Positions 34,544 to 52,506 of a stretch of 64,000 nt of DNA are shown one piece after another. Origin of the DNA: Candidatus Heimdallarchaeum aukensis (GTDB taxonomy: Archaea > Asgardarchaeota > Heimdallarchaeia > Heimdallarchaeales > Heimdallarchaeaceae). The translations under genes and the position numbers were made by a program. The notes beneath the pieces are model-generated. The model ran no database searches. It saw only the letters and a list, made by a program, of their open reading frames with translations, and was not told the DNA's origin. Each line of letters begins with the position of its first letter. The first letter of the stretch is position 1. The stretch covers positions 32,001-96,000 of the forward strand of contig CP084166.1 of assembly GCA_021513695.1 (NCBI GenBank), given 5' to 3'.

Positions 34544-34709
34544 ACATGATTTTTAAACTTTAAATTTGACTGCTAAAAATGCAACTTTTCAAGGCTTGTA
34601 GTACATTTTATATATTAATTATCGTATAGTACTCTTTAGAGTTCTGGGATTGGAATTGGGGCTATTATTTCCTGGAGTAAGTAATTGAAAATTGAAAAGA
34701 AGTGTAAAA

Positions 34710-37700
34710 ATGAAAAAAAGTAAAATTAAAGTTATTTCTATTATCGCTATTTTTCTTCTCATCTTGAACGTCTCGACGATATACGTTCAAGGTCAGATGG
34801 TAGGTAATGAAACTAAATTAATGATGACTGGAAATCCTACAGAAGTTTATGAAGATCAGATAGCGATTCTGTATGATCCATTTAATGATATGACAAGAGA
34901 ACTAGCAAATTCGATTTATGAGACTGTTCATATGTTTTATTCTAACGTGAAAATGGTCAAAGTTTTCAATTTAGATTCATTTAACAGAGCTTTTTATGAT
35001 GATGATTGGATTAAAATCTATGTTTTCGACTCTGACTTAAAAGGAATAAAATTTGCTGGTTGGACAATGTCATGGAGAAAACTAACTGGATACTACAATG
35101 TTTTCAAAGATACAAGGCACATTGGAGTTTATGGAAACTCATACAAGATGGGTCCATATCTTAAGACTGAAAACTGTTATATAGAAAATACAGAGATTCT
35201 AGATTATCGTATTGCTTACATTCATGTATTGTGGTCATTATATGATATTTTTACAGAAAAAGAAGATGAAATTCTTCAACAAATAGGAGAAAATTTCAAA
35301 TTAATAGCAATTAAATATTTTGGAGATTCATTTGAAGAAATAATGTCTGCCGAGTTTGATCCACAAGGATTAGGTGTTGTTGACCCAAAAAAGGCAGAAG
35401 AAAGATTACAAGATTCAATGGACCAATATCCAAAGAGATTAAATAAAGTTAATCCATATACGGGTGAGTTAGTTGATCCAACAGCAGAGATTGAAGGATT
35501 TAATCCTGTAATGGATATTAAACCCAAAGCAGCGATAGATGAAGATGACATTGTTTTAGGTGAGTTTCCGTTCTTATCTTCGATTCCTGGAGCTGCAGGT
35601 GACGTTATTAAAATAATTTTAGAGTTTATAGGTGTCGAGATACCAGAAGGTTTATTGACTGTAGGTAAAGAATATGGGGGGCAGATCGTCGCAATAATTA
35701 AAGAGATACCTAAAATTATTGGTTTCTTTAAGGATCCAAGTGCAAGTAGTGCTATTGAACTATTTTTTGATGTAGCAAAAGAAATGTTTCCCAGTATAGA
35801 AGAATATAAGCCCTACTTCGATATAGTAGTGAAAGCCCTATTTTCGATAAAAGATATTGCTTCAGGGGATCTTACTCCTTTAATTGATATATCAATGGAA
35901 CTTCTACGATTTATAATTCCTGATAGTGTAGGAGATTTTGTTGACGATGTTTTTGATGCTTTAAACATATCAAGTGCCCTTTCTGATATTATTAGTGGAG
36001 TTACTAATGTTGGTGATTATCTTAAGAGTTTTCTCAATAGGCAACTAATTACAAATTTAATGAAGAAATTTATTGAACAGACTTTAGATCTAGGGGGAGA
36101 ATCCCAAAAATGGATAGATACCATTTCAGAGATTATTATGATTGCTTATGAAATTGCCAGCACTCGAGATATGGATCACATAATAGCGGATGTCTTTCCA
36201 CGATTAGGAAAATTAGTTTACAAGAACATCTTAGATATGACCTATGATGAAAATGTAGAAAATACCTTCAAAGGAATTGCTGTTGCAATTAAGATGGGTT
36301 TTGGAGCTGCTGGAATCATTGATGTTAATCTTAAGGATTCATTTATGGATTTAATAGGCTTCTTCTTCCCTGACCTCGTTGAGACAGTTAATGATGTTAA
36401 ATTCTTTGTTTCAAGTATTAGGTCTCAAATTGATTCCTTTATGGATCTTGTTAAAGATGTTTCAGAAGGTAAAAATCTAGATGTAAACAACGTTCATGAC
36501 CAAATTATATCTTTAATTACTGAGCTTAGTTCATTATCAGGTCATTCTCTCGATGCAAATAAGATAAATGTACTCTCTCAAGCTGTTTTGATGGCTTTAG
36601 CTCTAATAAATGGTGATTTTGAAGCTTTAAGTGATACTAGCTGCCTAACAAGTCTAGTTGATGGATTTCTAGAACATTTTATTGGACTAGAAGAAGGTCC
36701 TAGAGAAATTGTACAAAAGGCAATAGAAGCTGGAGCAGCTATTTTACCTTTCATTACTGGGAAAAAGAGTTTGAAAAAATATATTATGGGAAGACTTGAA
36801 GATTTTGCTGACAAATTCAAGAATCCTGGAGAAATAATTGAAAAGGTTCTTTATTATTTCCTAAGCAAGTACAACGCAAGTACTCAACTTTACCAACTTA
36901 TTGGAAAAATTGTAGGAATAGTCATTGACATCTTTTCTGGAGGATTTGACTTTTCTGTTCAAAATGTTATTCAGACAATAATCTCAATGGCAGTTGTAGT
37001 TTTGAACATGTTAGATGTCAATATTCCGTTAGAAGCAATGTACAAGAGTTTTCAACTTCTATGGGAAGAGGGGCCAGAATTTTCCAATGTTGTAAAAGTA
37101 GTTCAAGATATTATGGGATTACTTGGAGGAAGCATTGACCCAACAATTAAAACTACTGTAGAAACAGTTCTTACTTTTCTAGGAGGAGCAAAGAATATCT
37201 TCAAAGATGGAATAAAATGGATAATGAACCAACTTGTAGGTTGGGCAGCAGGGCAGATTGCTAATTTATTAAATATGCTTACTGATAAATTAAATGAACT
37301 GTTCCAATCTCTTGGTGATTTGGTAAGTTATGATTCTGAATTCCCAATTGGTTTCGGAAGTTTTACTGCCTTCCAGATGCGAGTATTCTTCTCTTTAAGT
37401 CCTGGATTCGAAATTAACCCTGAACCAATTCAAGAGCTCATTATGAGTATGATTTTTGATGGGTCAAAGGTTTTTGATCTCGATAATATCGGAGAATTGT
37501 TTAAGCTTATCTTAAAATCAATTTCAATTATTCCTATTTTCAAAGCTGGACTTGAAATCAAAGCAGGAACGTCTGGAAAGAACGACTTAATGAAGATGCT
37601 CCTTGATTCTCTTGGTCTGGAACTTTCATTCTCTGGCTCTGCAGGACTAACACTGCAATTAATGAAGATTTCTAATGGTAAAATAAGTACTAGTGATTTC

Positions 37701-40700
37701 TTCAAAGTAATAGAATTCTTCTTTAAATTCCAGATATCAATAGCTAAAACATTCCCATTAGCAGAATTTCTAGGTCCAGGAGGAGCAGTTTTAGCTAAAG
37801 TTGCAGAATTCTTAGGTTTAGGTGGAATTTACCTAAAGATAGAGTTCTTTATAGCAATAGAAATTGTTAAACGATGTGAGACACCTACTCAGAAGGCTGC
37901 AGATATTTTAACAATTGTAATAGGAATAGGTGTTTCTGTAATTATTGATATCGACTTGGTAATTGTTGGAATAAAAATAACTATAGGTTTTGTAGTGACG
38001 CTGACGTTTATCCAGGACTTCTTGGCGGACGCACCGCTGCAAGTGATACTCGAGATAGAGTTCACTGTAGCGGTGAAACTGACGTTCTTGTTCGTCGACT
38101 GGACAGGAACAGCGTCATGGGGTCCAGATCCAATTTATCTGGCAGGAGGACCGGATGATGAAAGCACAAAAGACGAAATGAGCGGCTTGGACGCAGATGG
38201 GGATGGGTTACCTGATTCATATGAGTTAGGAGTTCCAGGAATGAAAGTAGACAGCGATGACAGTGATGGAGACGGTTTATCAGACCAATTCGAAGTGAAA
38301 ACGAGTAAAACAGACCCTATCACTGCAGATTCTGACGATGATGGTCTAGATGATTACATGGAATATGAAGTCTTAAAGACCAATCCTCTACAAGTAGATA
38401 GTGACTATGATGGTTTAACTGACTATGAAGAAGTTGTTATCTATGGAACTGATCCTAATGCACAAGATACAGATGGTGATCAATTAGATGACTATTACGA
38501 AGTAAATACTGCATGGAATATCACTGGAATAACTCCAAGTGTAAGATTTGTTACAATTGGGGGAGTAGAGTATAAAGATCATACTGATCCTCTTAATCCT
38601 GATACTGATGGTGATGGACTTCTAGATGGACAAGAAGGAGAATTTGGGGCTTATTATGGACCAGAATTGTATAACACTTCAGACCCAAGTTGGGATCCCT
38701 ATCCAATATTCTACAATCAAGGATATACTCATCCATTAGATAATGATACCGATGATGATTCTTATAAACAATTAGCAAATGGAACTATAGCTCCAGATCG
38801 TCAGTTCTTAATCTATATGTCTGATAAGGTAGAAATAGATGGACAATGGGTTATTTTCATTGAAGATGATGAATTAATGGGTAGAGTAGTTAGAACTAAC
38901 CCAATTAACCCTGATACTGATGGTGATTCAGCAGTAATGGATAAATCTTGGAGAGGTGATGGGGCTCCTCTTGACTTTTTCCTGAAGTCTGATGGTTACG
39001 AACTCTGGTTAGATCCGCCGACAGACCCGAATGACGCGGATATGGACGATGATGGATTAATTGACGGTTTAGAGGGTTGGGGTAATAAGATCAGTAATCA
39101 TACTGATCCTCGTAATCCTGATACTGATGGTGATGGACTTGGAGACCTGCAAGATATTCTACTCGGTTCGGATCCTTTGAACCCTGATAGTGATATGGAT
39201 GGAATTCTAGATGGTGAGGAGTTCTTCAAGTATGGAACTAACCCCGCTTATGAAGATACAGATCATGATGGGCTTTTGGATGGTGAGGAAGTTTATCTAT
39301 TCCACACAAACCCTCTGGCGGTAGATAGCGATGGAGATGGGATAGATGATGGAATGGAGGTATTAGTTTATGGTTCAGACCCGATGGATGAAGATATGGA
39401 TAACGACGGTCTAACAGACTGGGAAGAGATTTTCTACTACTTTACCAATCCTAGAGATTACGACTCAGATGATGATGGTCTAAGTGATGCTATGGAGGTT
39501 TTAGATGAATATGCTATATACACTGACCCATTGAATTGGGACTCTGATAATGATTCAATCACATATCCTAATGAAAACGGAAATTATACTTTCCCACTTT
39601 CTGATGGAGATGAAGTACTAATTTACGGAACTGACCCATTGACAAGCGATACTGATGGAGATGGATTGCACGATTCGTTTGAACTATATCTTGGTTCAGG
39701 TTTAATTTACAACTTTACTCCTGTACCTTTGGATCCGTTATCTAACGATACTGATGGAGATGGAATATATGATGCAAATGAATACCACATTGCAAATGTC
39801 TCTAACATCATTTATCCTTATGTTAGTTTTATCATCACCCAACCTTACAATACTTCTCCAGTAGATCCAGACTCTGATGATGACGGGATTATCGATGGAG
39901 ACGAAGTCTATGTATATGGAACTATGCCAGATATGAAAGATACAGATGGAGATGGACTAGACGATTGGAGTGAACTTAATATTATGTATACTAACCCTCT
40001 GAGTTCGGATACGGACAATGACTATCTGACAGATTGGGAAGAATGGTATGCGGGTTTTGAACATCCAGGATATCTACTTGATCCTAACGACCCTGATTAT
40101 GATAATGATATGCTGCCAGATGGGCCAGAGTTACTACTTTACGGTTCTAATCCTAATAATGCCTATGAGATTGATCCAAGTTCAGGAAAAGTCGATGGTC
40201 TGTTGATGGATTGGGACCATGATGGTCTAGAAGATGGTTTAGAGTTCTTTGTATACAACACTAGTTATGTAGCAGGAGGAGGAGTCACCCAGCCAGATAG
40301 TGATAGAGATGGTTTGATGGATGGTGCAGAAGTATATGTTCATGGTACAGTCCCCACGAATTGGGATACTGACAATGATACATATAGTGATGGATTAGAA
40401 GTGATGTTAGGACTAGATCCTCTTACATATACAACAGAAGAGGAATTTATAGCAGCTCTATCTGCAAATCAAGATATGCTAGAAGCAGGAGTACTAGTTA
40501 TCTCACCAATAGAAGGTGGAATTTACTCTCCTTCTAACTATACTTTCATCCTCTATAACGTGACAGAACTACTGGGCGTACAATATCAAATGAAGAAGAA
40601 CAAACAAGATTTCGGAGACAACATGAGTATGTACTATGATGATGTTTCAAGGACGTGGATAACTCAAGGAGATTATATTGGACCTGGAGATTATATCGTC

Positions 40701-40913
40701 AGATTTTATGTGACAAAACCTGATGGAAATGTTTCGTTTATAGAACGGACGTTTTATGTCGAAGGAAGTCCAGTTGTCTCTCTACCTTGGGTCTTTGCGG
40801 GAATAGGTGGGGGAGTAGCTATTGGTGTTGCTTCAACTTTGACCGTTTATGCAGGAAGAGCAGGAAAACTGCGATTCTTAAAGAATATCTTTAAAAGAGG
40901 AGGTGCTTCATAA
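34710..40913 (+). CDS. Giant surface protein (about 2,067 aa). Domains in order: signal peptide, orphan N-terminal module of about 1,130 aa (helical then beta-rich), long TSP3 repeat array, beta-sandwich-like domain, C-terminal TM anchor.
   Basis: - The ATG at 34710 gives MKKSKIKVISIIAIFLLILNVSTIYVQG. The track start at 34692 is a TTG.
- More than 25 DxDxDGxxDxxE motifs lie at DNA about 38180-40400.
- C-terminal anchor: VFAGIGGGVAIGVASTLTVYAG.
- The stop overlaps the next start (TAATG). Confidence 0.85.
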   Translation: MKKSKIKVISIIAIFLLILNVSTIYVQGQMVGNETKLMMTGNPTEVYEDQIAILYDPFNDMTRELANSIYETVHMFYSNVKMVKVFNLDSFNRAFYDDDWIKIYVFDSDLKGIKFAGWTMSWRKLTGYYNVFKDTRHIGVYGNSYKMGPYLKTENCYIENTEILDYRIAYIHVLWSLYDIFTEKEDEILQQIGENFKLIAIKYFGDSFEEIMSAEFDPQGLGVVDPKKAEERLQDSMDQYPKRLNKVNPYTGELVDPTAEIEGFNPVMDIKPKAAIDEDDIVLGEFPFLSSIPGAAGDVIKIILEFIGVEIPEGLLTVGKEYGGQIVAIIKEIPKIIGFFKDPSASSAIELFFDVAKEMFPSIEEYKPYFDIVVKALFSIKDIASGDLTPLIDISMELLRFIIPDSVGDFVDDVFDALNISSALSDIISGVTNVGDYLKSFLNRQLITNLMKKFIEQTLDLGGESQKWIDTISEIIMIAYEIASTRDMDHIIADVFPRLGKLVYKNILDMTYDENVENTFKGIAVAIKMGFGAAGIIDVNLKDSFMDLIGFFFPDLVETVNDVKFFVSSIRSQIDSFMDLVKDVSEGKNLDVNNVHDQIISLITELSSLSGHSLDANKINVLSQAVLMALALINGDFEALSDTSCLTSLVDGFLEHFIGLEEGPREIVQKAIEAGAAILPFITGKKSLKKYIMGRLEDFADKFKNPGEIIEKVLYYFLSKYNASTQLYQLIGKIVGIVIDIFSGGFDFSVQNVIQTIISMAVVVLNMLDVNIPLEAMYKSFQLLWEEGPEFSNVVKVVQDIMGLLGGSIDPTIKTTVETVLTFLGGAKNIFKDGIKWIMNQLVGWAAGQIANLLNMLTDKLNELFQSLGDLVSYDSEFPIGFGSFTAFQMRVFFSLSPGFEINPEPIQELIMSMIFDGSKVFDLDNIGELFKLILKSISIIPIFKAGLEIKAGTSGKNDLMKMLLDSLGLELSFSGSAGLTLQLMKISNGKISTSDFFKVIEFFFKFQISIAKTFPLAEFLGPGGAVLAKVAEFLGLGGIYLKIEFFIAIEIVKRCETPTQKAADILTIVIGIGVSVIIDIDLVIVGIKITIGFVVTLTFIQDFLADAPLQVILEIEFTVAVKLTFLFVDWTGTASWGPDPIYLAGGPDDESTKDEMSGLDADGDGLPDSYELGVPGMKVDSDDSDGDGLSDQFEVKTSKTDPITADSDDDGLDDYMEYEVLKTNPLQVDSDYDGLTDYEEVVIYGTDPNAQDTDGDQLDDYYEVNTAWNITGITPSVRFVTIGGVEYKDHTDPLNPDTDGDGLLDGQEGEFGAYYGPELYNTSDPSWDPYPIFYNQGYTHPLDNDTDDDSYKQLANGTIAPDRQFLIYMSDKVEIDGQWVIFIEDDELMGRVVRTNPINPDTDGDSAVMDKSWRGDGAPLDFFLKSDGYELWLDPPTDPNDADMDDDGLIDGLEGWGNKISNHTDPRNPDTDGDGLGDLQDILLGSDPLNPDSDMDGILDGEEFFKYGTNPAYEDTDHDGLLDGEEVYLFHTNPLAVDSDGDGIDDGMEVLVYGSDPMDEDMDNDGLTDWEEIFYYFTNPRDYDSDDDGLSDAMEVLDEYAIYTDPLNWDSDNDSITYPNENGNYTFPLSDGDEVLIYGTDPLTSDTDGDGLHDSFELYLGSGLIYNFTPVPLDPLSNDTDGDGIYDANEYHIANVSNIIYPYVSFIITQPYNTSPVDPDSDDDGIIDGDEVYVYGTMPDMKDTDGDGLDDWSELNIMYTNPLSSDTDNDYLTDWEEWYAGFEHPGYLLDPNDPDYDNDMLPDGPELLLYGSNPNNAYEIDPSSGKVDGLLMDWDHDGLEDGLEFFVYNTSYVAGGGVTQPDSDRDGLMDGAEVYVHGTVPTNWDTDNDTYSDGLEVMLGLDPLTYTTEEEFIAALSANQDMLEAGVLVISPIEGGIYSPSNYTFILYNVTELLGVQYQMKKNKQDFGDNMSMYYDDVSRTWITQGDYIGPGDYIVRFYVTKPDGNVSFIERTFYVEGSPVVSLPWVFAGIGGGVAIGVASTLTVYAGRAGKLRFLKNIFKRGGAS
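38180..40400 (+). repeat. In-frame TSP3-type Ca-binding repeat array within the giant CDS 34710..40913.
   Basis: More than 25 DxDxDGxxDxxE units, interrupted by short non-repeat inserts. Confidence 0.8.
40897..40905 (+). promoter_or_regulatory. Shine-Dalgarno sequence for the second giant gene. It lies inside the 3' end of the first gene, and the stop and start overlap (TAATG).
   Basis: GAGGAGGTG lies 7 nt upstream of the ATG at 40913. The TAA at 40911-40913 shares its last A with the ATG. Confidence 0.7.
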
Positions 40914-43900
40914 TGCACGTAAAAAATAATTTAATTTGGAAGAAAGTATTAATCCTTTCTTTATTAGCTATAATGATTAGTTCACTAGTAGTAGGAATGC
41001 CCAATGCTCCGTTTGTTAATGCAGAAACTAATTCTGCACAATCTTTGCCTGATACAATAAGTTTAGAGGAAGCTAAACAACTAATGCAACAAATAAATGA
41101 AGGCAATGGTGGGGGCAACTTTGCTTCTGTTGAGCAACAAATCATTGATCCTGATTTAGATTTAAGTAGGTTATTAGCTGATAATCCTAATGAATATCAA
41201 CAAACATATCAACCTTGGAAATCTCAAGCTGCTGTTAGAAGTATAACCATCTCTGATGATTATGAATTTATGGCAGTAGGGGGAGGATATCTCTTTGACA
41301 ACGAAGTACAAGTATATCGATGGAACCCTGATATTAATCAATATGCTAAAGTTTGGGTGAGTGGAGATTCAGTTATTAAAGGCGATGTAATAGATGTCGA
41401 TTTTGGAGATACTGATAATAATGATTTCTTAGAAATTATTGCCACATCTTCTGACGGGTATTTCTACGTCTTTGAACAAGAACATATTTTTGACCCTGTA
41501 ACAAATACAGAAAATAGATTTGATCTTGTTTACACTAGTCCTTATTTAGGTCAAGTGTGGGGTGTAGAAGTTAATGATACAGATTTAGATCATCTAGACG
41601 ATATAATTGTCGTAAGTTGGGATCACAAAGTACATGTTTATGAATATTGGTTACACTCTGGTTATCCATTCAATTCAGAACATTGGATTACATATAGAGA
41701 AAAATGGCAAAGTCATGATACAGGTTATCATTTGTCTTCTTTAGTTGTTGGAGATACAAACTATAATGGTCTTCCAGACTTTGTTGTGGGAACGAGAGAA
41801 GGAGCTATTCTAGTTTTCGAAAATAATGGAACTATTTTAGATATCCAAGGACAACCTTATCCTCTTGCCCAAGATAATAGTTACAAATTAATTTATGCTG
41901 ATAATGAGTCAATTTGGAGACCAATTTACTCTATGGATATAGGTAATCTAGATAACTCTCCAGGAGATGAAGTAGTAATAGCTTCCTTTGCTTTTAATGG
42001 ATACATTCTAAGGTATGATGATTATAAAGGATATTACTTACAGAAGCTGATAAAAGACTTTGAATCTTGGACTTTGAAAGACTTTTATCCTGCAGATCAT
42101 TATGTAGATAATGGAACAGCAGGACAAAATGTATATTTCCAAGATCCAAATTATACAGGAACAACAGTTGAAGAGCCTATTTTGCAAAGTAATCCTGCAT
42201 TTATAAAAGGAAACTATCCCTATAATACTGGAGCTGCGCAAAATAATGATACATGTTATACTCATTTCGAATCTAATAGTACTCATGCTGCATGGGAAGT
42301 ATATGATTTTGGAGCAGATGAAGAGGGAACAGGAAATGGGAATGATGCTGCAGACATATTATTAAAATTCAAAACTTTACTATTTGATTACATATATAGA
42401 GATGATTTTATTATTTCTATCTCTCCAGACTATGAACATTGGGTAACTGTTGATCCTTCTCTTATTAATACATTTAATGTTGCCGCATCAACAAAATATC
42501 TCAGAATTAATGTAGATCCAATTTTAATTGAAAATAAATGGAATTACTTCAGATACATCAATGTAACAGTAATTTCTAATTCTACCAAAGATTATAACTT
42601 GTTATCTATAGAATTGCCTTATGTTTACCAAACTGTTTCAACAGCTTTAAGTGCTGAAGTGGGAACTTTAATGACCAGTACAGATACTAATGAAGAAGTT
42701 ATCCATGCAATTTTAGGAACAGTTGATGGCCGTCTTGTAGCTTTTAAATATGATGCCACTTCAGACTCGTTTGTTTTATCTTGGGATAGCTGGGTAGATG
42801 ATAGATTTACTGTTGGAATAAACATATGGGATATAGAACAAGTTAAGAATCTAGGCTCTATGCCTATGATATACGGAGTTACTGATTTGGAAACAGGTTA
42901 TCAACTTAGGATAAGTCCCTCTCCAGGAAGCCAAATTTCACAAGTGATTTTTGATTATACATTGTTCAATATTGATGGAGATTCTCCAGTTACAGGCGAA
43001 TTTGCAATTGTGGGTGGTAATGGAGATGTGTATTACTTTGATAATGGATTTGATTATGATGCTGCACAAACAACCCAATACTTCTCTTCGATCAACGATT
43101 ATGCAACTTATACAGGAAATATATCAATAGGTGCAGTAGAAATTGATACAGACTATTCCCAAGAAGAATTACTTATCGGTCATTACGATCCAAGTCTTTC
43201 TAATCAATACGATGACTTTGAAGATGATTCTTCAGATGTACTTCCAGCAGATATAAAAATATGGACACAAGTATCTTCAAAATATGAGTTAAATATATCA
43301 CTTTATAGTTTGGAAACAACTGGTCAACTTCGTGAAATATTAAAAAGTGCTCAATCAATTCCTTCAGCAGAAGGAGAGGATATTGATGGGGACGGAGATG
43401 TTGATATTGTTGTTTGTATTGAGAATCTATATCTACTTTGGAACATAGGAACACCAAGTAATCCAGAATTTATTTTGGATTCTGATTACTTTAAAGATAT
43501 AAATGAAGTAAAAGGAAGAAGACAATTCCTACATCCTCAATTTGTGGAATTTGAAATGGATGGAATTTATGATCTATCGATTGGCTACTCAAATAGAGTG
43601 GGAGCAACATATTTTGATAATTATGGAACTGCTCTTGCTCCTAAATGGGAAGAAAGAAAAGAGTTAGTTAACAACTTTGATGAAGAAGCTACAATAAATG
43701 TCTATAACTTTACTAGACCTCTCTGGATAAAATATTCAGAATTTGATGAATATTCTACTTTGTTATTAGAACATAATACAGGAAAGAGCTACTATGACAA
43801 GTACTACATATATACAATGCTAGATGATAGAAATGGTGACATGGTTTACTTCATGATTTCAAATAAAATACAAACTAGCTTCATGGTAGCATCTAATCCT

Positions 43901-46900
43901 ACTGTATCTAGAATCGAAGTTAACACCTTCAAATCTGAAGAATATGGAGGGATCTATAAGTGGAGGAATTTTGGATTTAGGGCAATTATAAGCTGGACGA
44001 CAGCAATAGATCTCTATAATTGGACTTTGACTGTAGATTCTGGAGATTTAGACCAAGATGGGAAAGGAGAAATTATAGTAGGAGACTATGATAGTAATGT
44101 ATACATCTTTGAGCATATGACTAATAATACTTACAAACGTGCATTCAGGTCTCCTGATATGCTCCAGTATGTTCCAACTGATGAAACACCTTATAGTTGG
44201 GACAAATTTGGAGGATATGAAGGAGAGTTTAATCAGACAATTTGGAACCATGTGAGCTATTTGCTTGTGAATGCTGATAGTGATGGAGACGGTTATCTTG
44301 AGTTAGCTGCTCTTGCAGGAACAGTTCTGTATGTATTTGAAGACACGGGAATAGATGATACATACTCATACATGTATAGACTAGATGTTTTAAGGAGTTC
44401 AGCAGGAGAATACTTGAAAGAAAATGGTTTTCTTACACCTTCTGGTTTAACATGGGCTCAAGATTTAGATTTAGATGGTTATGGAGAGTTCATAATAGCC
44501 TTTGAAAAACAAGTATTTGTTTATGAACCTTATTCTGGAACACTCTATGAACTGTTTGGTAATGTTGCATCTGATGACCCTGAAACAGGACACTATAATA
44601 TTTTAGGAAATGCTAGGGTATTTGATAATATTACAATAAATGGAATGTTATGTTCTGACATTAATGAAAATGGAAGAGAAGAACTTTTCATTTATGGTTC
44701 TGTAGATGTTGATCTTCTTGATTATGAAGAAGGATTTATTGTAATGATTGAAAGCATCGATCTAGGCTATAAGATAATCTGGCAAGGACCAACAGAGTTA
44801 GTTAGTAGAAATATTATTACAGACCTTGAAATTGCTGACCAGGACTATGATGGTTTCAAAGAATTGATCATTGGTGGAAGTAAAGGTGTAAGTATTTACG
44901 AATTTGTTGGAGGAACAACTGCTAGCTTTACTCAAGAGGGACTAATTACAGGACACATGAATTATCCCCAAATGGCAGCTCATTCACTATTTGGAAAATA
45001 TAGTTACAATGATGATTATGACTATAGAAAACAGAGGTCTCATGATATAAGACAGATAGTTTACAGTGGAGGTTCAAATAATCATTCATATATTTCTGCT
45101 TTTAGTGAGTATAACGATACAATGGGTGCATATGCTATATATCAAAAAGTAAGTCATGACGGAGTAAATTGGTTATCGAGCAAACTTATAGCTTATTGGT
45201 ATTCTGGTGGTTACATAAGTTTATACTTCCCCTCACTTACACAGACAAGTAATTACTCTCTCTGGTTAGCAGTTACTTGTAAATTTTATAGCGTAGGTTT
45301 AGGTTCCGTATATGGCGTTCTTCTATATCGTTCAGATGATTATGGGGCAAATTGGGTATTCGTAGATGGATTGGCTTCAGAATATATAGAAGAAGGTTCA
45401 ACAAATCCGATATATTCACCCACAATATTCCCAACAGGACCTAATTCAATAGGTTTAGTGTATATTTTCAGACCAAATAACACTTATTCAGAATTATACT
45501 ATGGAGGGTTATTTGATAATGGAACAGTAATACCTCAAACAAAAATCGAGGGTTTTGATGATTTCATGTTCAACGGTGTTGATGTTGATTCAAAACCTGA
45601 TAATAGTGGAGTATATGCTGCTGCTTTTAGTGCTAAAAAGTATATTGAAGAAAAAGATGATTACGATATCTGGTACTGTGAATTTAATTCAACCTATGGA
45701 TTAATACTTGAACCAAGAAGACTATTTACTTCATTCTCTGTTGAGCATACTCCTAGTATTACTTATGTCCACAATGATGCCTATTCTAGACTTCTAACAT
45801 TTGATTCTTCTGGATTACAAAAGGCGATGACTTTATCATATGGAATGGTTTCTGATGATGGAATACATTGGTCTGACCCAGATATACTTGCTGAATATCC
45901 AGAGTATATTATTCCTCCAACTAAGTCAAACCCCTATCCAAAGATATCTGGTTTCTCTAACAGTTGGAGTATATATGATCTAGGTTTCAGAGCTCCAAAA
46001 GTTGCTCCAACCTACGATGGTAAATTCATATTACTTACAAAATTTGATGCAACTATTGTCTACTTCTCATTCCCAATCTTCTATATATATTATTATAATG
46101 ACTACGTAAGCCAAATTTATCCATTGAACTTTACAAGTTTTGTAGGGTTAAACACTGTAACAGATCTTGCTGTTGGAGACTCGGATAGAGATGGTAGAAA
46201 AGAGATAATGATAGCTGATGGATATCGAGCAGAAATGTTTGAGTTACTTAACACAAAAAATAGGAAGCAACTTTATACAAGCAAATGGTATAGTCCTGAG
46301 CATGATAATCCTGTTTCCGATGTAACTATGTTTGACACAAATGGTAACGGTTTTCCTGAACTAATTTACAGCGTTCAAGGCGAAGACATTTATGTATATG
46401 ATGTTGTAAATATTCATTTACCAAAGGCAGATTTACATAAATTACAATCAACTACTTTAGACTTATCTGGTGCTGGAAAGGTTATAACTAGAATTAAATC
46501 AGATCTAAATGATGACGGAATAAATGACATGGTGGTTTATTGCGAAGGAGGAAAAATGTATGGAATCTTAGGTAATAACCTGTCAATTTTATGGACTTTG
46601 GAAGATTCATTAGTTTCTCCAAATTGGTTCCTCGAAGAATCAATTTATCATGGTAATAGTGCTCTAATTTTTGTAAATAGTAATGGAACAACTTTGTGGA
46701 TAGACAAGAAAACAGGACAAGTTATAACCTCTCTTGATTTAGGTGAAGGAAGTTATACCTTAAATCCAATAGCAACAATGCTTAACTATACAAAGGATAA
46801 CACCATGGACATTGCCATTAAAGGTGATGCTCCTGGACATATTTATCTCTTTGACGGGAATAATGGTTCGCTTCTAAAGGATCTCACTTTCGACACTGAA

Positions 46901-48922
46901 AGATATGTGCAAGAAATTGAAGTAGCACATGAGCAAGGAGAGGATTATCTCATAGTTTCTTATTATTGGATAGAATATAAAGACCTAGGTGGCGGTATTA
47001 TTGTATGGATATTCCATGGAAAGATTACTGCTTACAACTTATCTTCGTCCTCACTAGATCAAATATGGGAAGTTAACTCTTACTATGCTGGAGGATTTAG
47101 AGGGGCAAATTTAATAGTAGATGATATTAATGGAGATGGAGATTCAGAAATATATGCATTTGGTGGTGGAATAAAATTACTTGATGCTAATGGTACTGAA
47201 TATTGGCGGGCTTACAACTATTTCTACTCTTATGATGCTGTTATATTTGATATAAATGATGATGGAATTAAAGATATAATTACTTCTTCAGGACAGAATA
47301 GTAAAGTTACAGCTCTTGATGGAAAAGATGGAAATGTTACTTGGAGTAATATACCCACCCAGAATATCTATGACTTAGAGATTAGTGACCCAGAAGGAGA
47401 AGATCCAATCCTTTATCTAGCTAACTCTAGAACAGATTATCAAGGAATAATTTTCTTAAACATTAGGAATGGTGGGTTCTTAGGTTACTATTACGACACA
47501 AGTAGTGATTTTCTAAATGATAACGCATTGGTACCAACCACTGTGGATTCAAAACCTGCAGTCTTAGCAGTTGATTATGACGCAGAGAAAATTTATCAAG
47601 TTCAAATAAATGAAACAGAACAAGTTTATGAGCATGATATTATACCTAAACTCTCCTTTGATCAAATACTTAAAACTGGAAAGAATGTTAACCCCGATAC
47701 TGTTATTTATGACAATCTAAACGACGATGAGTATGTAGAAATTTTCTATATACAAAATGGAAATGAGTCATTCATCTATAATCCAATCAAAGGTGAGTAT
47801 ATTGAAGAATATACTATCCCTACAAATGGGAGTGTTCTTTATGCTTTCAAAGCTAATTTATCTGACACTTCATTCTATGATTCTATTTTTATAATTACCT
47901 CTGAATACAAGGTAGGTGTTTTAGATCTCACTTCAATGAGTTATAAAAAGATATTGGACTTATCAGGTTATGTAGATGAAATTGCTTCATATGCTTACTT
48001 GGATATTACTGAAGATGTATTTATTTTAGGTTTCTTTGACTATACAAAGAAAGCATGGTACGTAGGCGCATGGAATATTAAAGGAGAAGAGGTATTCTCA
48101 CCTATTTACCAAGGTTCTCATAAACCAGATCAAATAAATGCAGGTAAATTACTTGATAAAGCCACGTATGAAGAAGGAGCAGCTTTTGTAATAACAAGCT
48201 TTGGTGCATACATATATGCTTATGATCTTAAGGGAACACAACTAGCTATGATTAAACAAGATGGACCTGCAGGTTTCACAGCTTTAGGAGAACTGAAAAA
48301 AGGATTAGGTTTTGAGTTTGTTTACTATAGGTTTGGAGATAAATTCTACTGTTATAACCTTAATACCATGACTGATGAATGGTCATCTACTTTAAGAAAT
48401 GACAATGAACTATTATCTATTGCTGTAGGATATATTGATAGCTCTACTAATCCTGATTATGCTAAAGTATTTGTTTCGCAGAGCGGTACAGGAATTTATG
48501 CATTTGATGATGTAGATAAAGAGTTATGGTATCACAGACATAATTCTTTTGTTGCTAAATTCCTTCATGTGATCAATGATGAAGCTTTAGGCAAGGTTCT
48601 TCAAGTTACAGATTATCATAGAACATTCTACATCAATGGAACAACTGCTGAAGTTTTATATGCTACAAGTACCTTGATGAAACAAGTTCTTTGGGTAGGA
48701 ACATGGTCTTCTCCAGACTCTGCATATGACTCAATAGCATTCTTTGATGGAAACTCATTCTATAGTCGAGGAATAGATGTTTCTTCTTCAGGAGCTTCAA
48801 CAGTGCAAGATCATATGGAAATCTCTGCAGAAAGGTTAACAAGACTTAGTACTCCAATAATTATAATGATGAGTGTAATGGTAACCATAATCACTCTTGT
48901 CTTCAGAAAAAATAAAAGTTAA
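40913..48922 (+). CDS. Giant surface protein (2,669 aa). Domains: signal peptide, multiple FG-GAP/VCBS-type propeller repeats, an Asp-box (BNR) region, PQQ/BamB-like repeats, C-terminal TM anchor.
   Basis: - Strong SD GAGGAGGTG at 40897-40905.
- FG-GAP-like units: LVVGDTNYNGLPDFVVGTREGAILVFEN, DSGDLDQDGKGEIIVGDYDSNVYIFE, LAVGDSDRDGRKEIMIADGY, VDDINGDGDSEIYAFGGG.
- Asp-box-like motifs: SHDGVNW, SDDYGANW, SDDGIHW (DNA about 45150-45875).
- PQQ-like unit: ALDGKDGNVTWS.
- C-terminal anchor: IIIMMSVMVTIITLVF. Confidence 0.85.
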   Translation: MHVKNNLIWKKVLILSLLAIMISSLVVGMPNAPFVNAETNSAQSLPDTISLEEAKQLMQQINEGNGGGNFASVEQQIIDPDLDLSRLLADNPNEYQQTYQPWKSQAAVRSITISDDYEFMAVGGGYLFDNEVQVYRWNPDINQYAKVWVSGDSVIKGDVIDVDFGDTDNNDFLEIIATSSDGYFYVFEQEHIFDPVTNTENRFDLVYTSPYLGQVWGVEVNDTDLDHLDDIIVVSWDHKVHVYEYWLHSGYPFNSEHWITYREKWQSHDTGYHLSSLVVGDTNYNGLPDFVVGTREGAILVFENNGTILDIQGQPYPLAQDNSYKLIYADNESIWRPIYSMDIGNLDNSPGDEVVIASFAFNGYILRYDDYKGYYLQKLIKDFESWTLKDFYPADHYVDNGTAGQNVYFQDPNYTGTTVEEPILQSNPAFIKGNYPYNTGAAQNNDTCYTHFESNSTHAAWEVYDFGADEEGTGNGNDAADILLKFKTLLFDYIYRDDFIISISPDYEHWVTVDPSLINTFNVAASTKYLRINVDPILIENKWNYFRYINVTVISNSTKDYNLLSIELPYVYQTVSTALSAEVGTLMTSTDTNEEVIHAILGTVDGRLVAFKYDATSDSFVLSWDSWVDDRFTVGINIWDIEQVKNLGSMPMIYGVTDLETGYQLRISPSPGSQISQVIFDYTLFNIDGDSPVTGEFAIVGGNGDVYYFDNGFDYDAAQTTQYFSSINDYATYTGNISIGAVEIDTDYSQEELLIGHYDPSLSNQYDDFEDDSSDVLPADIKIWTQVSSKYELNISLYSLETTGQLREILKSAQSIPSAEGEDIDGDGDVDIVVCIENLYLLWNIGTPSNPEFILDSDYFKDINEVKGRRQFLHPQFVEFEMDGIYDLSIGYSNRVGATYFDNYGTALAPKWEERKELVNNFDEEATINVYNFTRPLWIKYSEFDEYSTLLLEHNTGKSYYDKYYIYTMLDDRNGDMVYFMISNKIQTSFMVASNPTVSRIEVNTFKSEEYGGIYKWRNFGFRAIISWTTAIDLYNWTLTVDSGDLDQDGKGEIIVGDYDSNVYIFEHMTNNTYKRAFRSPDMLQYVPTDETPYSWDKFGGYEGEFNQTIWNHVSYLLVNADSDGDGYLELAALAGTVLYVFEDTGIDDTYSYMYRLDVLRSSAGEYLKENGFLTPSGLTWAQDLDLDGYGEFIIAFEKQVFVYEPYSGTLYELFGNVASDDPETGHYNILGNARVFDNITINGMLCSDINENGREELFIYGSVDVDLLDYEEGFIVMIESIDLGYKIIWQGPTELVSRNIITDLEIADQDYDGFKELIIGGSKGVSIYEFVGGTTASFTQEGLITGHMNYPQMAAHSLFGKYSYNDDYDYRKQRSHDIRQIVYSGGSNNHSYISAFSEYNDTMGAYAIYQKVSHDGVNWLSSKLIAYWYSGGYISLYFPSLTQTSNYSLWLAVTCKFYSVGLGSVYGVLLYRSDDYGANWVFVDGLASEYIEEGSTNPIYSPTIFPTGPNSIGLVYIFRPNNTYSELYYGGLFDNGTVIPQTKIEGFDDFMFNGVDVDSKPDNSGVYAAAFSAKKYIEEKDDYDIWYCEFNSTYGLILEPRRLFTSFSVEHTPSITYVHNDAYSRLLTFDSSGLQKAMTLSYGMVSDDGIHWSDPDILAEYPEYIIPPTKSNPYPKISGFSNSWSIYDLGFRAPKVAPTYDGKFILLTKFDATIVYFSFPIFYIYYYNDYVSQIYPLNFTSFVGLNTVTDLAVGDSDRDGRKEIMIADGYRAEMFELLNTKNRKQLYTSKWYSPEHDNPVSDVTMFDTNGNGFPELIYSVQGEDIYVYDVVNIHLPKADLHKLQSTTLDLSGAGKVITRIKSDLNDDGINDMVVYCEGGKMYGILGNNLSILWTLEDSLVSPNWFLEESIYHGNSALIFVNSNGTTLWIDKKTGQVITSLDLGEGSYTLNPIATMLNYTKDNTMDIAIKGDAPGHIYLFDGNNGSLLKDLTFDTERYVQEIEVAHEQGEDYLIVSYYWIEYKDLGGGIIVWIFHGKITAYNLSSSSLDQIWEVNSYYAGGFRGANLIVDDINGDGDSEIYAFGGGIKLLDANGTEYWRAYNYFYSYDAVIFDINDDGIKDIITSSGQNSKVTALDGKDGNVTWSNIPTQNIYDLEISDPEGEDPILYLANSRTDYQGIIFLNIRNGGFLGYYYDTSSDFLNDNALVPTTVDSKPAVLAVDYDAEKIYQVQINETEQVYEHDIIPKLSFDQILKTGKNVNPDTVIYDNLNDDEYVEIFYIQNGNESFIYNPIKGEYIEEYTIPTNGSVLYAFKANLSDTSFYDSIFIITSEYKVGVLDLTSMSYKKILDLSGYVDEIASYAYLDITEDVFILGFFDYTKKAWYVGAWNIKGEEVFSPIYQGSHKPDQINAGKLLDKATYEEGAAFVITSFGAYIYAYDLKGTQLAMIKQDGPAGFTALGELKKGLGFEFVYYRFGDKFYCYNLNTMTDEWSSTLRNDNELLSIAVGYIDSSTNPDYAKVFVSQSGTGIYAFDDVDKELWYHRHNSFVAKFLHVINDEALGKVLQVTDYHRTFYINGTTAEVLYATSTLMKQVLWVGTWSSPDSAYDSIAFFDGNSFYSRGIDVSSSGASTVQDHMEISAERLTRLSTPIIIMMSVMVTIITLVFRKNKS

Positions 48923-48980
48923 ACATTTTTTTCCTTTTTTTATTTTTTAAAATAGTAAATTTAAAATTTTATAAATTCAA

Positions 48981-49025
48981 TTTTCTTCATTTTTGTCGGC
49001 TAATTATTCATTTTCTTCATTTTTG
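48981..49025. repeat. Direct repeat of the 15-mer TTTTCTTCATTTTTG, spaced exactly 30 nt apart, upstream of the Rab-like GTPase gene.
   Basis: Identical 15-mers lie at 48981-48995 and 49011-49025. Their flanks are similar (..TTCA[A] / [T]CGG). Confidence 0.7.
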
Positions 49026-49113
49026 CGGATAGAATTACCAATTATCTTATAAAAAGCCATGCGACAGTTAGAATGATAGACCACTAAAAGGTCATAAACT
49101 TGGGGGTTTAAGA

Positions 49114-49791
49114 ATGTTGATGGTACCTACTCAGATGAAAAAAATAACCATACTAGGGACAACTGGTAGTGGAAAGACCACCTTTTTAGAAGCTTTATTT
49201 GGTGATTTTGAAAAAAATGATGTTAAAAGAGATTTGAGTAAAGAAAAAAGTTCAAATTGTGATTTTATTCCTTTGAAAAATAATACATTCAAAGAAAGTA
49301 CAACAACAATAAGTTTGAATGTCATTAATTCATTGCTTTATTTGACTACATTTAATCGATTAGGTTTAGAAAAGTTCGAAAATAGAGACAATATTGACTT
49401 TGAAAATGTTGAAGAGATTTATCAAATAGTTTTCAATGATCCTGCAGGACAAGAAAGATTTGATTTCATGCAAGAGATAGCAGTAAGAGGAGCAAACCTA
49501 GTAATTATAATGGCTGATGGCACAAATATCTCGAGTTTAGAAAAAGTAGTTCATTATATTTCGTTGGTAAAAATTGAAGAAAATCTATCTAAAAAGAAAA
49601 TACCGACTATTATTTTCATCAACAAATCTGATTTAAAGGAAAAGGGTGTTTATTTAGGAAAAAATGTAGCTGAGCAGATTATTTATTCAAGCATTCTTGA
49701 TGAGAAATTACTTATTTATGAAACTTCTAACCTTAAGAGAGAAACATATGATGAACCTTTGAGGATTATTTTTAACTATCTTTCATACTAA
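49114..49791 (+). CDS. Small GTPase (Rab/Ras-like) with an extended switch-I region.
   Basis: - G1: GTTGSGKTT.
- G3: DPAGQERF (Rab/Ras-type DxxGQE).
- G4: NKSD.
- About 75 aa separate G1 and G3, which is longer than in canonical Ras-family proteins.
- GGGGGT lies 7 nt upstream of the start. Confidence 0.8.
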   Translation: MLMVPTQMKKITILGTTGSGKTTFLEALFGDFEKNDVKRDLSKEKSSNCDFIPLKNNTFKESTTTISLNVINSLLYLTTFNRLGLEKFENRDNIDFENVEEIYQIVFNDPAGQERFDFMQEIAVRGANLVIIMADGTNISSLEKVVHYISLVKIEENLSKKKIPTIIFINKSDLKEKGVYLGKNVAEQIIYSSILDEKLLIYETSNLKRETYDEPLRIIFNYLSY

Positions 49792-49843: not shown

Positions 49844-50818
49844 ATGAGCGTAAAAATAACCTCAGAATATATAGAGCTGCTGAATAAAGCAGTTGCAAGA
49901 GAATTACAAGTTTCTGTTCAATATTTTCTACAACACGCTAAAATTGAAAAAATAATGAGAAAAGTTAAAGCTGAAAATATTTTACTTGATTCCACAACTT
50001 ACGACCAGATAGGTCAGATTTTAAAGAAACTAGCAATAGAAGAAATGAAACATGCAGGATCAATCGTTGAGAGAATTTATTATTTGGGAGGCAAGGCAAC
50101 AACTAAAGCTTTTAAACCTAAAATAGGAGAAAATATGCAAGAATTTATGAAATATGGCTTTGAAGCTGAAGAAGAAGCTTTAGAATTATATCGTGAAATA
50201 ATCCGCGAGGCAGGTAAATTAGGAGATTATGATACTAAAGAACTCTTTAGGAAAATCTATAGAGAGGAAGAAGAACATCTTTATACGTTTCAAGAATATT
50301 TAACAATTAATATTAGTGAACCTGGAGAGACAGCACCAAAGTCCGAATGGAGAAAAGTTTTTGACGACGAATACTTTGCTCTATTAAACAAAGCCTTAGC
50401 TTCAGAACTGTCTGCTATTATTCAGTACATAACCCAACATGAAAAAGCGAGTGCAATCAATCTTAGGAAAAAAGAAACGCCTTTAGAAGTAATTACCAAT
50501 ACAAACAAAGCGCAAGTTATTAGTAACATGTTAAAGAAAATCTTTATGCAAGAAATGGAACATTACGAAAAGATTTCTGAAAGAATATACATGTTGGATG
50601 GAGAATGTACATTGGATCCTGATCCTTTGCCAAAAGTTGGTGAGAGCGTAGAAGATTTCTTGAAACTGGGTCATCAAGCTGAAGATGAAGCTATTGTTCT
50701 TTATCGTAAAATCATAGAAGAAGCTACTAAGAAGGGAGATATAACTACTAAGAAGATGTTTGAAGAAATATTGATGGAAGAAGAAGAACATTACTGGATG
50801 TTTGATGACTACTTGTAA
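49844..50818 (+). CDS. Tandem ferritin-like (bacterioferritin/rubrerythrin-type) di-iron protein with two four-helix-bundle halves in one chain.
   Basis: - First half: ELQVSVQY, EEMKHAGS, EAEEEALE, EEEEHLYTF.
- Second half: ELSAIIQY, QEMEHYEK, AEDEAIV, EEEEHYWMF.
- Together this gives two complete E..ExxH..E..ExxH ligand sets. Confidence 0.75.
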   Translation: MSVKITSEYIELLNKAVARELQVSVQYFLQHAKIEKIMRKVKAENILLDSTTYDQIGQILKKLAIEEMKHAGSIVERIYYLGGKATTKAFKPKIGENMQEFMKYGFEAEEEALELYREIIREAGKLGDYDTKELFRKIYREEEEHLYTFQEYLTINISEPGETAPKSEWRKVFDDEYFALLNKALASELSAIIQYITQHEKASAINLRKKETPLEVITNTNKAQVISNMLKKIFMQEMEHYEKISERIYMLDGECTLDPDPLPKVGESVEDFLKLGHQAEDEAIVLYRKIIEEATKKGDITTKKMFEEILMEEEEHYWMFDDYL

Positions 50819-50888: not shown

Positions 50889-51254
50889 ATGAGTAATATA
50901 AAGAAACTCACTTTTTCTGTAAATCAAAGTAGAAGAGTGATTCGTGCAGCAGAAAACAAGAAAATTGAACCTAAAGAATTGCTTAAAGGTTATGAGCTTA
51001 TGGTAAATACCCTCTTTAAGCATTGGAAAGAAGAATATGCTGAAACTATGGAAATTGACTTTCAAACATTTTTTTATGAAATAATGAAATATGCTGAAGT
51101 TAAATATAGATTAGAAAAGACCAAGTCTGATCTAAAAAAAATAAAAGAAATGTCAGAGTTGTTAAACGAAGCCATTGAAGAATATAAAGAAGATTATACA
51201 ATTTTGAAGGCTATAGAAGATAGTTTGAGAAATATGGGTGTTGAGTGGGTTTAA
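50889..51254 (+). CDS. Hypothetical helical protein, first gene of the recombinase islet.
   Basis: The ORF has K/E-rich coiled-coil character. The next ATG starts immediately after its stop codon (TAA 51252-51254, ATG 51255-51257), so the genes abut with no overlap. No family recognised. Confidence 0.4.
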   Translation: MSNIKKLTFSVNQSRRVIRAAENKKIEPKELLKGYELMVNTLFKHWKEEYAETMEIDFQTFFYEIMKYAEVKYRLEKTKSDLKKIKEMSELLNEAIEEYKEDYTILKAIEDSLRNMGVEWV

Positions 51255-51704
51255 ATGAAATTGAATATTACCCAATTTAAGATTAAATTCAAGGATAAAA
51301 TAGAAATTGAAAATGAAGAGAAATTTGCAGATAATATAATCTATTATTATCCGTTTTTTCAATCTTTAGATAAAAATGAGTTAGAGAAGTCTCTTCAATC
51401 AATAAGAGAAGAAAAAAAAGTCTTGGAGAAAAAATTCAAAAAAATAAAAGAAGAGTTCTCAGATATACTGGGAGAGATAGCAAAAATACGTTTCACAGCT
51501 AATGAATTATATAATCAAAATAGGGTTATAGCTCTGACTACAGGGTTATTAAGACATAAGCTGATAGATTTACATAATAATAATGTTGAACTTCCTTTTG
51601 ATTATGAGGAAACACTTAAGTTTGTAGAACATTTTATTTATAGATATTTAACTAAAAAAGAAGATAAAAGACTTGTTGCCCAGCTACCTTTTAAAGAGAT
51701 TTGA
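51255..51704 (+). CDS. Hypothetical helical protein.
   Basis: The ORF is contiguous with the previous gene and is coiled-coil-like. No family recognised. Confidence 0.4.
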   Translation: MKLNITQFKIKFKDKIEIENEEKFADNIIYYYPFFQSLDKNELEKSLQSIREEKKVLEKKFKKIKEEFSDILGEIAKIRFTANELYNQNRVIALTTGLLRHKLIDLHNNNVELPFDYEETLKFVEHFIYRYLTKKEDKRLVAQLPFKEI

Positions 51705-51783
51705 GAAAATTCACACTTTTTCTATTTGGAATAGTAATACTAAGTTTTATATTAAAAATAGAGAACCTTATTGCAAGGTCAAA

Positions 51784-52506
51784 ATGATTCGTTGTGTTAT
51801 TTATGCTCGTACATCTACAGCTGATCAAACTAGTGGGTTAGAAACACAGATTGAAGATGTAACGGCTAAGATATATCAAGCTGGAGATAGAGCAATAGTA
51901 AGAATAATTAAAGATCAAGATATTGCAGGCGATAGTGACCCTGAATATAGACCCGGATTTAAAGAAATCCTAGAAATGGCAAAGAATAATCAATTTGATG
52001 AGTTATGGTCTCAATCAAGAGACAGATTGTCAAGAGACGTTGATATTTTGGGTTATATTCGCATTCTTCTAAAAAAGAATAATGTTTCTATAGTTTGTTT
52101 AGATGATGAAGAAAACAAGGTTATTTCTAGAGTTAAAGACCTATTTGGTGAAATGGAACTTCAAAAATATAGAGAAAAAAGATACAAAGGAATGATGAGA
52201 AGACTAAAGGAACAAAAAGTAATGTCAAGACCTCCTTTTGGTTATAAAGTGAATGAGGAAGGAAAATTAGTTGTAGATGAGGAAAAAGCAGCAATAATTA
52301 GAAGGCTCTTTTCTGAATTTGACAACCCTTTGGCTTCTTTGAAAAGTTTAAGTTTGAAATATAATTTATCTGTCTCTACACTGCGAAATATTCGTTCAAA
52401 CCCAATTTATCGAACTGGTGAAGTACGTTGGGCAGGAAAAATTGCTTATTATGTTGATCCTATTGTCCCTGAAAATAAAGATCAAAAACTTAAGTTAGAC
52501 GACTAA
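51784..52506 (+). CDS. Serine recombinase: a resolvase-type catalytic domain plus a partial 'recombinase' domain. It is short, about 240 aa.
   Basis: - MIRCVIYARTSTADQ matches the YxRxSTxxQ catalytic-serine motif right after the ATG at 51784.
- RDRLSRD motif is present.
- RPPFGYKVNEEGKLVVDEEKAAIIRRLF resembles the large-serine-recombinase domain.
- A TATA-like TTTATATTAAAAAT lies about 35 nt upstream. Confidence 0.8.
   Translation: MIRCVIYARTSTADQTSGLETQIEDVTAKIYQAGDRAIVRIIKDQDIAGDSDPEYRPGFKEILEMAKNNQFDELWSQSRDRLSRDVDILGYIRILLKKNNVSIVCLDDEENKVISRVKDLFGEMELQKYREKRYKGMMRRLKEQKVMSRPPFGYKVNEEGKLVVDEEKAAIIRRLFSEFDNPLASLKSLSLKYNLSVSTLRNIRSNPIYRTGEVRWAGKIAYYVDPIVPENKDQKLKLDD

Follow-up and report, generated by a model that had tools for sequence, protein, structure and literature searches.

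The window analyzed here, i.e., the whole 64,000-nucleotide stretch of the Candidatus Heimdallarchaeum aukensis genome (contig CP084166.1), carries the gene of a Rab-like small GTPase, which a first-pass annotation made from the sequence alone had singled out because of the long interval between its G1 and G3 motifs. This protein is very probably a real small GTP-binding switch belonging to an undescribed, well-conserved Rab-like subfamily, in which two insertions of fixed length are present around switch I, and which is independent of the giant surface-protein genes located upstream. This view is based on comparisons between family members and on structure prediction.

Gene Identity and G Motifs

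The product of the open reading frame (ORF) is 100% identical to UJG40919.1 (UniRef A0A9Y1FLK1) from the 3.08-Mb Candidatus H. aukensis genome. The protein recorded at the NCBI begins two codons later than the ORF, at 49120, and the annotation attached to A0A9Y1FLK1 is merely "GTPase domain-containing protein." The G+C content of the window is about 30%, in keeping with this origin. Since the product has 136 homologues, the ORF can be taken to be a genuine gene and not a chance ORF.

The G1, G3, G4, and G5 motifs occur in this order and are conserved in the family, as in the Ras superfamily (TRAFAC, extended Ras-like). The GTTGSGKTT, DPAGQERF, and NKSD motifs reported in the first-pass annotation were all found in the translation. 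The residues G15, T16, G18, G20, K21, and T22 of the P-loop are invariant across the family, as are D109, G112, Q113 (the position of the catalytic Gln), and R115 in the G3 region. The interval between the P-loop and DxxGQ, initially put at about 75 amino acids (aa), is unusually long as claimed, but its true value is larger: D109 is separated from the end of the P-loop motif by 85 residues and is 88 residues away from K21. The median distance between these Lys and Asp residues is 88 in the 121 family-range sequences, and exactly 88 in 81 of them. In about 100 canonical Ras/Rab-like proteins collected in the same exhaustive search (see below), the P-loop Lys is 42 residues away from the G3 Asp, in line with the canonical spacing of about 40 aa given in the first-pass annotation.

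Switch I and the Two Insertions

The additional residues had been described as one insert (aa 35–101) replacing switch I. The sequence quoted is indeed present, but the block S62-T-T-T65-x-S67-x-N69 is intact in 122 of 123 full-length family members, as the family alignment also shows. This block is in register with the T40-I-G-x-D-F segment of Rabs just before strand β2, N69 occupying the position of the Asp in the Rab IGxDF motif. Throughout the family, T64 and T65 are conserved without exception, directly ahead of the predicted β2. T65 would be the G2 threonine contacting Mg2+ and the γ-phosphate: a switch I Thr is found ahead of an antiparallel β2, as is typical of TRAFAC proteins, and its contact with the nucleotide is a prediction made from this position.

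The distance from K21 to T65 amounts to 44 residues and that from T65 to D109 likewise to 44 residues. In Rab and Ras proteins, the P-loop Lys and the G2 Thr are about 19 residues apart, and the G2 Thr and the G3 Asp about 23. Since both intervals are longer than their Rab/Ras counterparts, the alignment indicates that the 46 extra residues are two insertions flanking an intact G2, and not a single insert.

Insertion 1 has a fixed length and makes this region about 25 aa longer than in Rabs. R39 and E44 are 100% invariant, and V37, F51, and F59 are nearly so. Insertion 2 is also fixed in length, and it contains the invariant N81, the other positions being variable. The mean gap frequency is about 0.01 in both insertions, in sequences with identities ranging down to about 40%. 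The insert noticed in the first-pass annotation is therefore conserved family-wide, and the fact that both segments are practically gapless and contain invariant residues indicates that they are constrained structural elements rather than loose loops. Structural modeling, which had been put forward as a means of seeing where the insert folds, gave a clear result in the case of insertion 2, which is modeled as an extra strand (aa 83–87) followed by a short helix (aa 88–93) with predicted local distance difference test (pLDDT) values of 85–90, and a low-confidence one in that of insertion 1.

The Rab-Like Core

The Pfam Ras profile matches the protein with a score of 43.3 bits (threshold: 21.6) at aa 100–214 only, and the TIGR00231 "small_GTP" profile gives 47.9 bits. 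A curated-profile score above the threshold combined with a Ras-like fold places the protein in the Ras superfamily. When a profile built from 26 family members was compared with all the PDB sequences, the best matches were Rabs (Rab11 with 58.8 bits, then Ypt7/Rab7, Ypt1/Rab1, and Rab8), and the Thorarchaeota Rab 7EZB scored 43.5 bits. These matches always consist of two blocks, the P-loop and the part extending from β3 to α5, leaving the profile positions from about 34 to 100 unaligned.

AlphaFold2 (AF2) confidently predicts the canonical G fold with six strands and five helices (mean pLDDT 83.3 and predicted template modeling score 0.80 with an alignment of 26 sequences). With an alignment of 112 sequences, the topology was unchanged and the confidence at aa 30–67 was no better. 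The Foldseek matches agree with a Rab-like fold. Since the template modeling (TM) scores normalized to the query are just 0.51–0.59, the extra segments in the model are covered by no solved structure.

The five RabF motifs are reportedly IGVDF, KLQIW, RFrsiT, YYRGA, and LVYDIT (RabF1–F5, as defined by Pereira-Leal and Seabra in 2000). With these definitions, the counterparts read in the present protein are ISLNV, QIVFN, RFDFMQ, AVRGA, and IIMADGT, in which about half of the positions are kept. Neither the N-terminal amphipathic helix nor the DxGGQ form of G3 nor the short interswitch toggle of the Arf and Asgard ArfR proteins is present, and membership of these groups was rejected. No prenylatable Cys motif of the Rab type (CC, CxC, or CaaX) was found in the protein, which ends in IFNYLSY and has C49 as its sole Cys, so that the first-pass annotation was right about the C-terminus. 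Terminal cysteines are present in no small GTPase of MK-D1, nor in Thor-Rab (Tran et al., 2024; PMC10933270). Since Asgard small GTPases generally lack such a motif, its absence is normal here and is not a distinguishing feature.

Extent and Distribution of the Family

Nearly all the 136 homologues are 225–245 aa long, and the 120 that were listed have E-values between 4e-137 and about 1e-39. The members from Heimdallarchaeaceae are mostly 57–66% identical to the window protein, and those from Kariarchaeaceae about 45%. Source names are carried by only a minority of the family matches. The remaining labels are other "Heimdallarchaeota," one "Asgard group," one Odinarchaeota, and one Methanobacteriota, the latter record being possibly a mislabeled metagenome-assembled genome (MAG).

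In an exhaustive hidden Markov model search among 1.84 billion cluster representatives, only 12 clusters (50% identity) were obtained at E<1e-30, all of them matching full-length in one stretch. Below this level, there is an abrupt fall to fragments and to ordinary Ras-like proteins of about 200 aa, in which two separate stretches are matched and the insert is passed over. In the divergent clusters, the names attached to members are Hodarchaeota and Candidatus Hodarchaeum mangrovi; one genome locus of Hodarchaeota was retrieved as well. As far as these searches can tell, this is a discrete, sharply bounded orthologous family, the named members of which are nearly all Heimdallarchaeia (Heimdallarchaeaceae, Kariarchaeaceae, and Hodarchaeales). 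There is one match per genome wherever this is visible, and the only complete genome represented contains a single match. When the insert region alone was used as a profile, it matched four Heimdallarchaeota fragments and nothing else, a weak negative result given that few candidates were listed and that more than 100 full-length members with the same region were missed.

Some matches were discarded. In the search of GTDB genomes (at least six loci), a match at a Desulfurococcaceae locus was spurious, as it involved aa 1–90 only. Two eukaryotic proteins matched in a single stretch (P0263 and P0267) proved to be Rabs that have a C-terminal Cys and inserts of low complexity, and not relatives of the family.

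Two other sequences are of interest in their own right. P0137 (179 aa, from a single 703-bp ENA contig) is a Rab-like protein of canonical length, with a G1–G3 spacing of 42 and an ATIG switch I. Over the last 126 residues, it shares 57% identity with the Hodarchaeum family member P0128, to which the N-terminal part bears no relation. It has to be regarded as a natural recombinant without the insert or as an assembly chimera. P0150 (228 aa, from a 2.5-kb contig) is a distant relative matched in a single stretch (E = 1.4e-14) with a long G1–G3 interval, an EVNR motif, and an MglA-like G3, GTPGQ, which lacks the Asp. Its sequence hints at the existence of a wider group of archaeal small GTPases with long spacers.

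Family members are called "GTPase domain-containing protein," "GTP-binding protein," or "Rab family GTPase" in the sources. In the H. aukensis genome paper, all the small GTPases were lumped into one family (PMC8813620). The 74 GTPase-related sequences of MK-D1 were classed as Rab-, Rag-, and MglA-like by Tran et al. (2024; PMC10933270), and the sole insert mentioned by these authors is the switch II insert occurring in GTPase-Roadblock fusions. Liu et al. distinguished 94 small-GTPase asCOGs, which show a patchy distribution. In the literature searched, the family does not correspond to any described prokaryotic GTPase family, although the insert is present throughout it. The possibility raised in the first-pass annotation, namely that the insert might turn out to be common to a known prokaryotic family, was not borne out in this literature.

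Proposed Function

In the mechanism proposed, GTP or GDP would be bound with Mg2+ through T22 and T65, and GTP would be hydrolyzed with the help of Q113 as in Rabs. The two insertions would remodel the surfaces that report the nucleotide state, namely switch I and the interswitch. Insertion 1 would lengthen switch I, and its invariant R39 and E44 may make contact with the nucleotide pocket or with a regulator, while the strand and helix of insertion 2 would give the interswitch hairpin a docking surface specific to the family. Because the state-reporting surfaces are rebuilt, the family probably has an effector or a regulator of its own rather than Rab-type partners. Because there is neither a lipid anchor nor an amphipathic N-terminus, the GTPase is likely to be soluble, or else to be recruited by binding to other proteins. 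It would be transcribed alone, its place after the giant surface genes being a lineage-specific accident of insertion.

Several points weigh against this interpretation. The assignment of T65 to G2 is a matter of sequence register and predicted secondary structure. The AF2 confidence is low at aa 30–67 (pLDDT 54–71), which makes the placement of R39 and E44 uncertain. The term "Rab-like" denotes similarity, as judged from the ranking of the best matches in the PDB profile and fold searches, and not monophyly with Rabs. The restriction to Heimdallarchaeia may not be strict, unless the Odinarchaeota and Methanobacteriota labels are those of mislabeled MAGs. Lastly, no conserved neighbor was found across the 16 loci compared, so that no partner gene was identified.

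It is also conceivable, but rather unlikely, that the protein is a self-contained "timer" GTPase conserved in the Heimdallarchaeia, including Hodarchaeales, in which R39, positioned by E44 and brought into the active site by the lengthened switch I, would be an arginine finger acting in cis, and the enlarged interswitch hairpin would be a nucleotide-dependent platform for an Asgard-specific effector. In MglA and Gα, an intrinsic Arg acts on the nucleotide in cis. By analogy, and speculatively, the present family would have reinvented this solution independently, starting from a Rab. The AF2 model based on 112 sequences shows, with low confidence, a short strand at aa 36–38 and another at aa 63–65, which hints that these two segments may be near each other. 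The Hodarchaeales are the proposed closest relatives of eukaryotes.

Asgard archaea have dozens of small GTPases, which are central to the debates about the origins of eukaryotic membranes and signaling. Most of these families are patchy; the present one has been kept across the Heimdallarchaeia, with invariant residues inside its inserts. It is a tractable target, consisting of one protein with testable residues (R39, E44, T65, and N81) and a predicted new partner surface. Its significance is limited by its ordinary Rab-like core and by the fact that lineage-specific GTPase variants are common in Asgards, the Rab-like repertoire of which is very large and diverse, and neither a eukaryotic counterpart nor a functional context was found for the family.

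Genomic Neighborhood and Alternative Interpretations

The coordinates of the features discussed in this study are given in Table 1.

Table 1. Features of the GTPase and its surroundings, in window positions.
Feature	Positions	Strand	Basis
Rab-like small GTPase ORF, complete, 225 aa plus stop	49114–49791	+	
G1/P-loop GTTGSGKTT, aa 15–23	49156–49182	+	Family alignment
Insertion 1, aa 30–61, between helix α1 and switch I	49201–49296	+	Alignment, AF2
Switch I/putative G2 block STTTIS, aa 62–67	49297–49314	+	Sequence register and AF2 secondary structure
Predicted strand β2, aa 68–78	49315–49347	+	AF2; invariant N69 and T78
Insertion 2, aa 79–98, about 20 aa, tip of the β2-β3 interswitch hairpin	49348–49407	+	Alignment, AF2
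Strand β3 and G3/start of switch II, DPAGQERF at aa 109–116	49408–49461	+	Family alignment
G4 NKSD, aa 170–173, guanine-specificity motif	49621–49632	+	
G5 ETS, aa 203–205, equivalent to Ras/Rab ETSA(K)	49720–49728	+	
Giant gene 1, 2073 aa, TSP3 repeats	34692–40913	+	
Giant gene 2, 2669 aa, FG-GAP/β-propeller, N-terminal signal-like and C-terminal hydrophobic segments	40913–48922	+	
Spacer between giant gene 2 and the GTPase gene, 191 bp	48923–49113	+	
324-aa protein with two ferritin/rubrerythrin-like domains, between the GTPase and 121-aa genes	49844–50818	+	
121-aa helical protein, 149-aa coiled-coil protein (overlapping start/stop), and serine recombinase	50889–52506	+	

At two other Heimdallarchaeaceae loci, L001 and L006, where the GTPases are 65 and 61% identical to that of the window, the genes follow each other in the order QRPTase, NadA, NAD kinase, GTPase, 122-aa protein, 149-aa protein, resolvase, and IF-2B, which is the order in the window minus the giant pair. 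Since these loci are otherwise syntenic with the window and have the NAD kinase gene directly before that of the GTPase, the gene order indicates that some 14.5 kb carrying the giant pair were inserted between the two. L001, L005, L006, and L007 all lack the ferritin-like gene here, which makes it, on this comparison, an insertion specific to the window. The block formed by the genes of the 121-aa protein, the 149-aa protein, and the recombinase occupies the same chromosomal position in L001, L006, and L007, and the stable synteny of the recombinase suggests that it is a domesticated or fixed element. No known relatives of the 121-aa and 149-aa proteins were found. When ten more loci, belonging to Kariarchaeaceae, Hodarchaeota, and other groups, were clustered by all-against-all BLAST, the GTPase itself was the only thing in common. 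A DRG/Obg-type GTPase gene (MMR_HSR1 and TGS domains) is located 58–80 bp upstream on the same strand in L002 (6812–7921) and L013 (3833–4942), and is confined to these two related loci of a Kariarchaeaceae-like sublineage. A TPR protein is encoded near the GTPase in three loci.

One alternative interpretation is that the GTPase, the 121-aa protein, the 149-aa coiled-coil protein, and the serine recombinase form a small conserved cassette. The recombinase would then be under the control of the GTPase, for instance in a module for DNA rearrangement or one domesticated from a mobile element. The 121-aa gene is present 41–114 bp downstream of the GTPase gene in four other Heimdallarchaeaceae loci and occurs in the window too, the 149-aa gene and the resolvase gene follow in three to four loci, and the resolvase matches a PHROG integrase (1e-34). 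However, the synteny around the locus exceeds 20 kb in these genomes, and co-linearity is to be expected from relatedness alone; the cassette is absent beside the GTPase in all the Kariarchaeaceae, Hodarchaeota, and other loci; and in the window, the ferritin-like gene separates the GTPase gene from the 121-aa gene. PADLOC and PHROG matches to the GTPase and the 121-aa and 149-aa proteins do not go beyond P-loop noise, and on these grounds a defense or phage module was rejected as well. A cassette of this kind is quite improbable.

Hardly more credible, and in our opinion slightly less so, is the idea of an MglA-like polarity GTPase, with a lengthened switch I or extra strand, an intrinsic arginine finger, and a GTPase-activating protein of the Roadblock type (MglB). 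The lengthened switch I region and the invariant Arg of the family recall this arrangement, but T65 is preceded by S-T-T, the invariant Arg being residue 39. Pfam and PDB sequence searches with those adjacent small genes that were tested revealed no Roadblock, longin, or DENN signatures, and the lack of a neighbor common to the 16 loci argues against an MglB-like companion.

The first-pass annotation had made the GTPase a candidate cytoplasmic partner of the giant surface operon. On this reading, it would be a partner or regulator forming one module with the two upstream proteins. Its gene does begin only 191 bp past the ORF of the 2669-aa giant, on the same strand, and the arrangement is repeated in L005 (GTPase identity 72%), where the order is TSP3-repeat giant, FG-GAP giant, and GTPase. 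Among the 16 loci compared, the window and L005 are the only ones with this adjacency: in L001 and L006, the giants are missing from an otherwise syntenic region and the GTPase gene comes directly after that of NAD kinase, none of the 10 further loci has giants nearby, and the GTPase family is much more widespread than the giant pair. The neighborhood, the conservation of which had been proposed as a check, is therefore not conserved in this respect. The spacer also argues against a single module. Oligo-T runs (TTTTTTTCCTTTTTTTATTTTTT) directly follow the stop of the giant gene, and the GTPase gene has signals of its own, a TATA-like TTATAAAAA at about 49047 and a Shine–Dalgarno-like GGGGG at 49103 before the ATG. 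Because of these features, the spacer would consist of a terminator followed by a promoter and a ribosome-binding site belonging to the GTPase, which would form an independent transcription unit. We regard a partnership with the giants as highly improbable, and in practice the giant surface-protein locus should be annotated without the GTPase gene.

The spacer also contains a 16-bp exact direct repeat, ATTTTCTTCATTTTTG, at 48980–48995 and 49010–49025, the two copies being 30 bp apart; a regulator might bind to ATTTTCTTCATTTTTG, or the repeat could be a scar left by the insertion of the giant genes. As to the origin of the giant pair, aloposons are elements in which twin giant genes are followed downstream by a tRNA integration site (PMC8813620). 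The pair recalls the twin giants of the aloposons described in the H. aukensis paper, but the genes in the window are smaller. The 64-kb window contains no tRNA, and no direct repeats flanking the pair were found, the internal repeats being only TSP3-type coding repeats, which makes an aloposon-like origin less likely.

Least probable of all is a GPN-loop (SIMIBI-type) GTPase, which the GTxGSGKTT P-loop, the interval of about 85 residues before DTPGQ, and the NKxD motif would call to mind, as they resemble those of PAB0955 and Npa3, and which is favored by a Pfam ATP_bind_1 match (29.6 bits, with a cut-off at 27) that many homologues carry in precomputed form: this match covers only aa 100–177, the protein has no GPN tripeptide, a TRAFAC-type G2 Thr appears to be present, the predicted topology is Ras-like, and the neighbors in the fold and profile searches are Rabs.

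Comparison with Known Systems

GPN-loop GTPases (Npa3/GPN1 and PAB0955) resemble the present family in their GTxGSGKTT motif, a G1–G3 distance of about 85–90 residues, the D-x-x-G-Q and NKxD motifs, and the marginal ATP_bind_1 match. They differ from it by the GPN motif, which is missing here, and by the switch I Thr of the TRAFAC type and the Ras-like topology predicted here; GPN-loop proteins were not among the top fold matches.

In Gα, a helical domain of about 120 aa is inserted, the Arg is located three residues before the G2 Thr, and G3 is an Arf-like DVGGQ, all of which differ from the features of the present family; no evidence was found that the inserts of the two share a common descent. 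MglA has its Arg directly in front of the G2 Thr, and its partner MglB is usually encoded next to it, neither of which is the case here. The inserts of the present family are also much longer than those of MglA, and the second one is located in the interswitch hairpin.

The closest resemblance is to the Asgard Rab-like proteins, such as the Thorarchaeota Rab (PDB 7EZB), and to the eukaryotic Rab11, Rab7/Ypt7, Rab1/Ypt1, and Rab6, with which the family has in common the G fold and the sequence from β3 to α5, including the DxAGQERF, R/KGA, xDxT(N), NKxD, and ETS motifs. Like the other Asgard Rabs, it has no C-terminal Cys (PMC10933270). It differs from Rabs in its P-loop, which reads GTTGSGKTT where Rabs have GDSGVGKS/T, and, going by the RabF motifs, in having ISLNV in the place of IGVDF, AVRGA in that of YYRGA, and no Trp before the G3 Asp. 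Above all, it differs in the 46 extra residues between G1 and G3, which are distributed over two fixed insertions.
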